Source: a virus
Lineage: Duplodnaviria > Heunggongvirae > Uroviricota > Caudoviricetes
Length of the DNA: 46,993 nt
Direction: 5' to 3' (one strand)
IMG/VR virus record: IMGVR_UViG_2529293060_000009
Position numbers and translations under genes: made by a program. Below, piece by piece: positions 30,257 through 30,979 of the stretch (positions are counted from its first letter, which is position 1; the number at the start of each line of letters is the position of its first letter). Below the pieces are notes generated by a model that was not told the origin of the DNA, made no database searches, and was given only the letters and a program-made list of their open reading frames with translations.

Positions 30257-30979
30257 CTAAGAAAATCTTGATAAATATTGGTGCGGAGGCACACAAAAAT
30301 ATCCTCTAAAAACACTTACAAAATATGATGCATTGTCATACCCGCATATTCCCGCCACCTTGCCGACAGTATGGTTACTGTAGATTAATAATCTTTGCGC
30401 CATCATCATTCGTTCTTCAAGAATTAATTTACTAAACGATAATCCTTCGTCTTTTAATTTTCTTTTTAACAAACTCTCGCTCATATATAATCTTGAAGAT
30501 ATATCACAAAGTCTCCATGACGCTGAGATATCCGAGTGAATAATAGCCTTAACTTTACAACCTAAGCTATTAAGACTTCCGAACAAAAAACTTTGCACTA
30601 TTTTCTCTGAAGATAAGACAGCAAGACATGCAAGTGATATTTGATTTCTAACTACATCCACGGTTTTGCTATCACAATTCAAGCATGCAACCAAGTTCTT
30701 TAACAATGAAAAATCTTCACATTCTACTATCAAGTATGACGGATAAAACCTTCTTACAGAAAAAGGTGAGAGTGTGTAGTTTTTAAAGAAATCATTAACT
30801 GTTTTCTCCTCAACATCTACGATCATTAGATGATCTGTATTTGACGAAAAAAGATCTTTTAAATTGTATTCAATGAGGACAGCATTTCCTTTTTTAAACA
30901 AAATATCTTCTTTACCAATTCGGACACCAAACGAGTTCAACACCAAAATGATAGAACATATGTATGACATATTATCCAC
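30257..30979 (-). CDS. AraC/XylS-family transcriptional regulator (AppY/GadX-like), prophage cargo
   Basis: 240-aa ORF with C-terminal AraC-type double HTH (..LLIYSNHTVGKVAGICGYDNASYFVSVFRGYFCVPPHQY). Low-GC gene. Confidence 0.8.
   Translation of the reverse strand: MDNMSYICSIILVLNSFGVRIGKEDILFKKGNAVLIEYNLKDLFSSNTDHLMIVDVEEKTVNDFFKNYTLSPFSVRRFYPSYLIVECEDFSLLKNLVACLNCDSKTVDVVRNQISLACLAVLSSEKIVQSFLFGSLNSLGCKVKAIIHSDISASWRLCDISSRLYMSESLLKRKLKDEGLSFSKLILEERMMMAQRLLIYSNHTVGKVAGICGYDNASYFVSVFRGYFCVPPHQYLSRFS

Follow-up and report, generated by a model that had tools for sequence, protein, structure and literature searches.

An AraC-family regulator resembling PatE in the Q-to-holin interval of a Qin-like prophage

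The regulators AppY, PatE and PsrA/B represent the best-documented phage route by which acid resistance and the timing of virulence are rewired in Escherichia coli. PatE and PsrB are activators of gadE and hdeA and increase the resistance to acid, and PsrA and PsrB repress type III secretion of the enterocyte effacement locus (LEE) via GadE/YhiF (reviews); AppY binds gadE, activates it directly and raises acid resistance (AppY paper). Reported sites of PatE and PsrB are the gadE promoter and a fragment of the hdeA promoter (-132 to -45). The expression of psrA responds to the relief of Hha/H-NS-type silencing. Here we describe a gene of the AraC/XylS family on the minus strand of a viral DNA sequence of 46,993 nt (Caudoviricetes; IMG/VR record IMGVR_UViG_2529293060_000009), which is referred to in its full length as the window. 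The gene lies between the antiterminator gene Q and the lysis cassette of a lambdoid prophage. That its product is a cargo regulator of the AraC family is hardly in doubt; by analogy with the proteins named above, we interpret it, with some reserve, as a (moron) transcription factor for lysogenic conversion that belongs to the PatE/PsrA/PsrB clade.

The open reading frame (ORF) at 30257..30979 begins at a GTG and encodes 240 amino acids (aa). It was found present and intact where the original prediction had placed it, with neither internal frameshifts nor internal stops, so that the frameshift or truncation that had been named there as grounds for rejection is not seen. The predicted start is probably not the true one: the ATG at 30970 is preferred over the GTG at 30979 because the GTG falls within the Shine-Dalgarno sequence and because the annotation in RefSeq and the database cluster representative both start at the ATG. 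Judged from these features, the coding sequence (CDS) most likely comprises 30257..30970 and encodes 237 aa. RefSeq annotates a CDS of 714 nt in loci that are 99.9% identical, and the cluster representative (P0001; 237 aa, 1532 member sequences) is 100% identical to the protein encoded in the window. Owing to an indel near the stop codon, the protein lacks 6 aa at its C-terminus relative to the 243-aa alleles; the indel sits past helix-turn-helix two, and the short allele is a common one.

Membership in the AraC family, as originally proposed, is borne out by the Pfam matches to HTH_18 (residues 161-237, 5e-15, 56 bits with a cut-off of 33.6) and HTH_AraC (5.9e-08). The top NCBIfam match was YdeO, with a full-length alignment, ahead of the unnamed AraC equivalog PRK15186, HilD and GadX; the scores for YdeO (110 vs 348 bits), GadX (86.5 vs 500) and HilD (92 vs 354) stayed below the respective equivalog cut-offs. 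The protein matched phrog_1450 over its full length (4.7e-95), a family annotated as 'unknown function', and the product name in RefSeq is 'helix-turn-helix domain-containing protein'. Among proteins of known structure, the sequence was closest to the DNA-binding domain of GadX (3mkl; 5.8e-20), followed by CsvR, Rns and ToxT.

An AlphaFold model built on 15 homologues had a mean predicted local distance difference test score (pLDDT) of 85 and a predicted template modelling score (pTM) of 0.80. Its N-terminal part is beta-rich, the strands being located within residues 3-54 and 79-83, and helices make up the part thereafter. Foldseek searches with the model retrieved Rns and CsvR of enterotoxigenic E. 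coli and ToxT of Vibrio cholerae as full-length matches (E ~1e-9 to 1e-6), with only 18-21% identity and a template modelling (TM) score of ~0.4 (about 0.43), since the domain arrangement differs; the orientation of the two domains in the model is accordingly uncertain. The DNA-binding domain of GadX matched with a target-normalised TM score of 0.82-0.85 and 40% identity. Taken together, the sequence and structure matches place the protein in the GadX/YdeO/Rns-like group of AraC/XylS regulators, with two domains, namely a beta-rich N-terminal domain and a C-terminal double helix-turn-helix. For the residues of the fatty-acid pocket of Rns/ToxT, a profile alignment failed to reach the N-terminal pocket reliably.

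Several reference sequences were chosen for a comparison with the described regulators. For PsrA we used ECs1087 of the Sakai prophage Sp4, where the full ORF has 237 aa. A 237-aa protein of strain EDL933 was taken as PsrB because its identity to PsrA (91%) fits the published value of 90%; Sakai Sp10, which was also examined for psrB, contains no AraC gene. PatE was represented by ECs_0287 (247 aa), the sole AraC-type gene of the Sakai prophage Sp1, which is adjacent to thrW, and AppY, EnvY, YbcM, YdeO, GadW and GadX were taken from strain K-12. The original prediction had suggested a comparison with AppY, GadX, PsrA/PsrB and PatE and had called the protein AppY/GadX-like. The family was right, and Pat/Psr-type is the better label: by global identity, the prophage regulators PatE (47%), PsrA (38%; BLASTP 7e-47) and PsrB (37%) are nearer than those of K-12 (28-32%: GadW 32%, AppY 30%, EnvY 29%, YdeO 28%, GadX 28%), with YbcM at 23%. 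The distance towards PatE is filled by alleles from the databases, with identities of 85%, 75%, 58% and 49%. The similarity is concentrated in the DNA-binding domain (64% vs 35% in the N-terminal domain for the PatE candidate; 53% vs 24% for PsrA), and the first recognition helix (SESLLKRKLK) is the same in the window protein and the PatE candidate, with a few positions differing in the second. By these comparisons the protein is placed in the prophage-borne PatE/PsrA/PsrB clade, closest to PatE.

Each of the described systems shares some features with the window gene and lacks others. PatE (z0321, OI-8, EDL933), the closest among the characterised relatives, is likewise AraC-like, encoded by a prophage and ~240 aa long, and its gene has the same heptamer TATACTT ~40 nt upstream of the ATG; unlike the window gene, PatE-type genes sit in the b-region near int or near tail-fibre genes. 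PsrA (ECs1087/z1789) and PsrB (z2104), known as prophage secretion regulators, agree with the window protein in length, family and in the location of their genes downstream of their own lambdoid antiterminators. However, they are followed by tRNA genes, have TATAAT (at -42) as upstream -10 element instead of TATACTT, and reside in prophages that carry pchA, or a PerC-family gene with nleG genes. No pch, PerC-family or nleG genes were found among the window ORFs examined, and no tRNA genes in the window; the protein should on this account not be called Psr. AppY is also an AraC/XylS regulator encoded by a prophage (DLP12 of K-12), but its gene is placed at the far end of DLP12 beside ompT and not between Q and the holin gene S. 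GadX, GadW and YdeO belong to the same subfamily, which includes the best full-length NCBIfam alignment (YdeO) and the best solved structure (GadX), but are chromosomally encoded and far more distant than the equivalog cut-offs would allow.

The position between Q and the lysis cassette, which had been claimed originally, agrees with the gene coordinates (Table 1). So does the view of this interval as a cargo slot; psrA in Sp4 and the PsrB candidate of EDL933 occupy the same kind of slot, between antiterminator and lysis genes. The interval also houses a Blc-like lipocalin gene, an insertion sequence (IS) of the IS3 family and a YbgA-like gene, which had gone unmentioned. Known RNA elements or tRNAs were not found in the Q-to-holin slot. 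By analogy with the lambdoid gene organisation, the hairpin directly downstream of Q is a candidate for the tR' terminator of the late operon.

Table 1. Features of the window that bear on the AraC gene and its surroundings, ordered by position.
Feature	Position	Strand	Evidence and remarks
'IS009' RNA	3343-3541		Rfam; inside tail-fibre assembly region
cspA-type thermoregulator leader	27888-28305		Rfam; csp gene just past lysis genes
Lysis genes past holin (DUF1327, Phage_lysozyme, Rz-like (DUF2514))	down to 28511	-	Pfam; RefSeq names essD/ydfR/rrrQ/rzpQ
S21-type class II holin (P21-type), first lysis gene	29851..30066 (/30150)	-	Pfam Phage_holin_2_1 6e-34
Intrinsic-terminator-like hairpin with T tract, between AraC stop and holin	30157..30188 (hairpin 30188-30167)	-	ACGCCAGAATAATTGCTGGCGT
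AraC/XylS-family regulator, CDS	30257..30970	-	237 aa; ORF finder extends to GTG at 30979
AT-rich intergenic spacer upstream of AraC gene	30971..31376	-	31% G+C
Shine-Dalgarno sequence AGGTGG	30976..30981	-	5 nt ahead of ATG 30970; read from sequence, kept in aligned alleles
Conserved promoter-like element	31006..31034	-	-35-like TGGCGA 31034-31029, 16-nt spacer, -10 TATACT(T) 31012-31006
YbgA-like gene, DUF523 (2-thiouracil desulfurase / TudS-type desulfidase domain) and DUF1722	31377..32336	-	Pfam 5.8e-40, 9.4e-40
IS3-family element, 1310 bp, IS629-like ends, rve-family transposase	32459..33768	-	3-bp target duplication GTT
Blc-like outer-membrane lipocalin	33842..34366	+	Pfam Lipocalin_2 7.5e-43; NCBIfam Blc subfamily 312 bits (cut-off 267)
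Terminator-like hairpin directly downstream of Q	34400..34423	-	Candidate tR'
Antiterminator Q gene	34522..34914	-	Pfam Phage_antitermQ 8e-51; RefSeq homologue 378 nt, 'antiterminator Q family protein'
sok antitoxin RNA	36855-37029		Rfam
DicF RNA	45455-45506		Rfam

Within the slot, the gene is accompanied by elements that would allow its independent expression. All Pat-type alleles down to 47% protein identity, including PatE, have the heptamer TATACTT without variation 39-42 nt before the ATG, and it was present in 76 of the 78 IMG/VR loci; a TTGGCA/TGGCGA-like hexamer lies 16-18 nt further upstream in these alleles, and the remaining spacer diverges. Such conservation suggests that the element is the gene's own promoter. 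A generic promoter scan found 14 sites vs 10.9 ± 3.8 in shuffled sequences, which is no excess, and did not call the element, so that the proposal is based on the conservation and not on the scan. We take TATACT followed by T to resemble a -10 element of the sigma-S type. This would fit the statement in a review that patE rises along with rpoS in stationary phase. Weaker sigma-70-like matches are located in the spacer at 31095-31068 and 31329-31302. On the other side of the gene, the terminator hairpin is kept in the phages IdasGreatGrand and 1H12, with one change in the loop, and was recovered with a strict pattern in 64 of the 78 IMG/VR loci. The G + C content is 33% in the AraC gene and 31% in the upstream spacer, against 43-50% in the neighbouring genes and 49% in the window. 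Of the features of a moron, deviant composition, a terminator and variable slot content are seen directly, and the promoter is present as a conserved motif; promoter-like element, gene and terminator together look like an independent cargo unit of foreign composition. The unit resembles the cargo genes and morons of lambdoid phages (stx of Stx phages, bor and lom of lambda): like them, it is a gene of foreign composition that brings a candidate promoter and a terminator of its own into the late operon, here in the interval from Q/tR' to S. It differs in that its product is a regulator and not a toxin or surface protein.

The leader was also inspected for an RNA thermometer or another structure sequestering the Shine-Dalgarno sequence. 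The motif CCACCU (31017-31012) can pair with AGGUGG (30976-31017 region), but the folding energies were no better than those of shuffled sequences (z -0.56 to +0.5), CCACCU is not kept in PatE-type alleles, and it would be located upstream of the proposed transcription start; this structure was rejected.

A location directly upstream of the holin gene would also be accounted for if the protein acted on promoters of the phage itself and thereby modulated, for example, the expression of late or lysis genes, superinfection or spontaneous induction. The gene points in the direction of the late operon, by which it would be read during lytic growth, and it is retained in viable phages. However, the conserved terminator stands between the gene and the holin, members of the clade also occur in the b-region next to int (the PatE-type alleles), and the slot is an exchangeable cargo space that holds nmpC in DLP12 and tRNAs together with psrA in Sp4; K-12 Qin carries cspB/cspF there. 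No AraC-family protein is known to act as a lambdoid late regulator, and we consider such a role in the phage life cycle very improbable.

Pairwise estimates of dN/dS (ratio of non-synonymous to synonymous substitution rates; Nei-Gojobori method) ranged overall from 0.17 to 0.25; against the 85%, 75% and 58% alleles, they yielded 0.17-0.23 (~0.2) for the entire AraC gene, ~0.13 for the DNA-binding domain and 0.26-0.44 for the N-terminal domain. By this measure, the gene is under purifying selection. The constraint, most pronounced in the DNA-binding domain, speaks against a silent passenger that is kept off by H-NS, does nothing measurable in the host and merely hitch-hikes in a successful prophage module, as do the intact ORF in hundreds of genomes and ~80 viral contigs and the conservation of both promoter motif and terminator. 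What speaks for a passenger is the very low G + C content of the gene and its upstream region (31-33%), the fact that psrA expression needs relief of Hha/H-NS-type silencing, and the presence of two IS insertions in the prophage; all in all, we give this explanation only a slim chance.

The allele group is widespread. Among 5426 complete E. coli genomes, 863 (~16%) have matches to no less than 80% of the 1.6 kb (29800-31400) that span the AraC gene; they come from humans, poultry, pigs, cattle and water, among others. Close alleles with an identical arrangement also occur in viable temperate phages, namely Jouyvirus 1H12 and related Lambda_ev phages (75.8%) and IdasGreatGrand (85.6%). Relatives with more than ~37% identity were found only in phages or genomes of Escherichia, the taxon in which the acid fitness island resides, with the exception of one contig labelled as a metagenome-assembled genome of Nanosynbacter. 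This 'Candidatus Nanosynbacter' bin contains an 84% allele (L018; contig of 3.2 kb) and a second AraC relative (L033; contig of 13.1 kb); the 3.2-kb contig was most likely misbinned, and the entries very probably reflect contamination by E. coli or one of its phages.

The gene order Q-lipocalin (opposite strand)-YbgA-AraC-holin was found in 70 of 70 IMG/VR contigs with enough flanking sequence, and an AraC homologue is located downstream of YbgA in 74 of 77 loci. With the arrangement essentially invariant among alleles of at least 75% identity, and recurring in 1H12, IdasGreatGrand and chromosomal loci, the protein might be a local regulator of the YbgA-like gene and/or the divergent lipocalin gene instead of a host regulon, as many AraC regulators control adjacent genes. 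This is the chief competing explanation, and it is weakened by the wider distribution of the clade: the 58% allele stands alone downstream of a PF03589-type antiterminator (the contig ends just past the gene), the 49% allele stands alone between a lambda-type Q and a holin, and the PatE-type alleles, PsrA and PsrB also occur without YbgA or lipocalin. Moreover, all characterised relatives act on host promoters. The nucleotide identity to IdasGreatGrand is 96-98% for Q, lipocalin and YbgA, 89% for the AraC gene and 86% for the holin gene; the drop from 98% (YbgA) to 89% (AraC gene) marks a recombination breakpoint within the intergenic spacer 30971..31376 and splits the AraC gene from its neighbours. 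By these identities, the AraC unit is a mosaic piece separate from the YbgA-lipocalin unit, and we regard a mainly local regulation as rather unlikely. In three IMG/VR loci with YbgA (L178, L211 and L243), an AraC match of at least half length is absent downstream; for two of these loci, a gap of 0.9-1.3 kb between YbgA and holin suggests that the AraC gene was deleted or disrupted. Recombinant alleles also occur: P0002 combines N- and C-terminal parts of the window type with a middle part of the 75% type, and P0004 combines the 85% and 75% types.

A further proposal would make the protein the control element of a three-gene conversion module, together with the Blc-like lipocalin and the YbgA-like enzyme of the [4Fe-4S] desulfidase family. 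Its Rns/ToxT-like N-terminal domain would sense a lipid or a signal derived from a thio-nucleobase that is linked to these neighbours and would drive a regulon distinct from that of the glutamate decarboxylase (GAD) system; this domain would diversify from allele to allele so as to follow different signals. We consider this unlikely. The YbgA-like gene and the lipocalin gene both fall in PHROGs of unknown function.

The view of the original prediction that prophage regulators of the Psr/Pat type act on acid-resistance and virulence regulons agrees with the literature (GAD; LEE through GadE), and it is from the homology to PatE, PsrA and PsrB that a GAD-type role is proposed for the window protein. 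In a lysogen, the gene would be transcribed from its own promoter, probably in stationary phase (sigma-S-like) and probably silenced by H-NS under standard conditions; in lytic growth, the Q-modified late transcript would read through it as well. The protein would bind AT-rich sites at promoters of the acid fitness island (of the gadE, hdeA and gadW type) and activate glutamate-dependent acid resistance, and in LEE-positive hosts it would repress type III secretion through GadE. By analogy, we think it reasonably probable that GAD-type host promoters are its main targets. Several points weigh against this assignment. An identity of 47% to PatE, with just 35% in the N-terminal domain, is no guarantee of a shared regulon, and S219 of the second recognition helix, a predicted base-contacting residue, is Y in PatE and S in PsrA/B (the putative base-contacting positions were assigned by mapping onto MarA). 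The identification of ECs_0287 as PatE (z0321) is putative and made by position and family. The candidate promoter is a conserved motif that the generic scan passed over, and the near-absolute linkage to YbgA and lipocalin in alleles of at least 75% identity is what would be expected of a local regulator, too.

This kind of element is already known, and the novelty is modest and holds no conceptual surprise; the gene is a credible and fairly ordinary modulator of the host. What is new is a distinct, widespread and uncharacterised group of Pat-clade alleles, a promoter motif in common with PatE, and a conserved three-gene cargo module; a literature search found no description of a lipocalin/YbgA/AraC moron. 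The group lies within a stretch present in about one-sixth of the complete E. coli genomes, and viable temperate phages harbour related alleles. If the activation of GAD holds true, the gene would be a widespread and transmissible modifier of survival in gastric acid, beyond the enterohaemorrhagic strains in which such regulators were studied.

The prophage as a whole is Qin-like and largely complete, as marked by the Rfam elements (DicF, sok and the cspA-type thermoregulator among them), by gnsB and pin, and by a flanking gene for a transporter of the major facilitator superfamily; tail-fibre genes are also present. It contains two direct copies of the 1310-bp IS3-family element, at 32459-33768 and 43501-44810, with IS629-like ends (TGAACCGCCCCGG). 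The copies differ by one base (32946) and represent independent insertions because they have separate 3-bp target duplications (GTT and AAC). The first copy interrupts the spacer between lipocalin and YbgA within the late operon; it is specific to the window, and a comparison locus (L001) shows the empty site. An IS629-like insertion at the exact site was found together with the AraC allele of the window in no complete E. coli genome of the collection. A search for RNA families located an ALIL frameshift pseudoknot in the IS3-family element.

A role in anti-phage defence was considered for the AraC regulator, the YbgA-like gene and the lipocalin and was rejected, as PADLOC gave no match for any of them. 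Elsewhere, at positions 37425-39826 of the window, a gene for abortive infection of the AbiH-like kind (AbiH in Pfam, 8e-69, and in PADLOC) precedes an ORF of 465 aa, for which there were no matches in Pfam, PADLOC or PHROG. Both are located in a stretch of ~32-40% G + C in the early region of the prophage, adjoining hok/sok, and may constitute a two-gene defence cargo.

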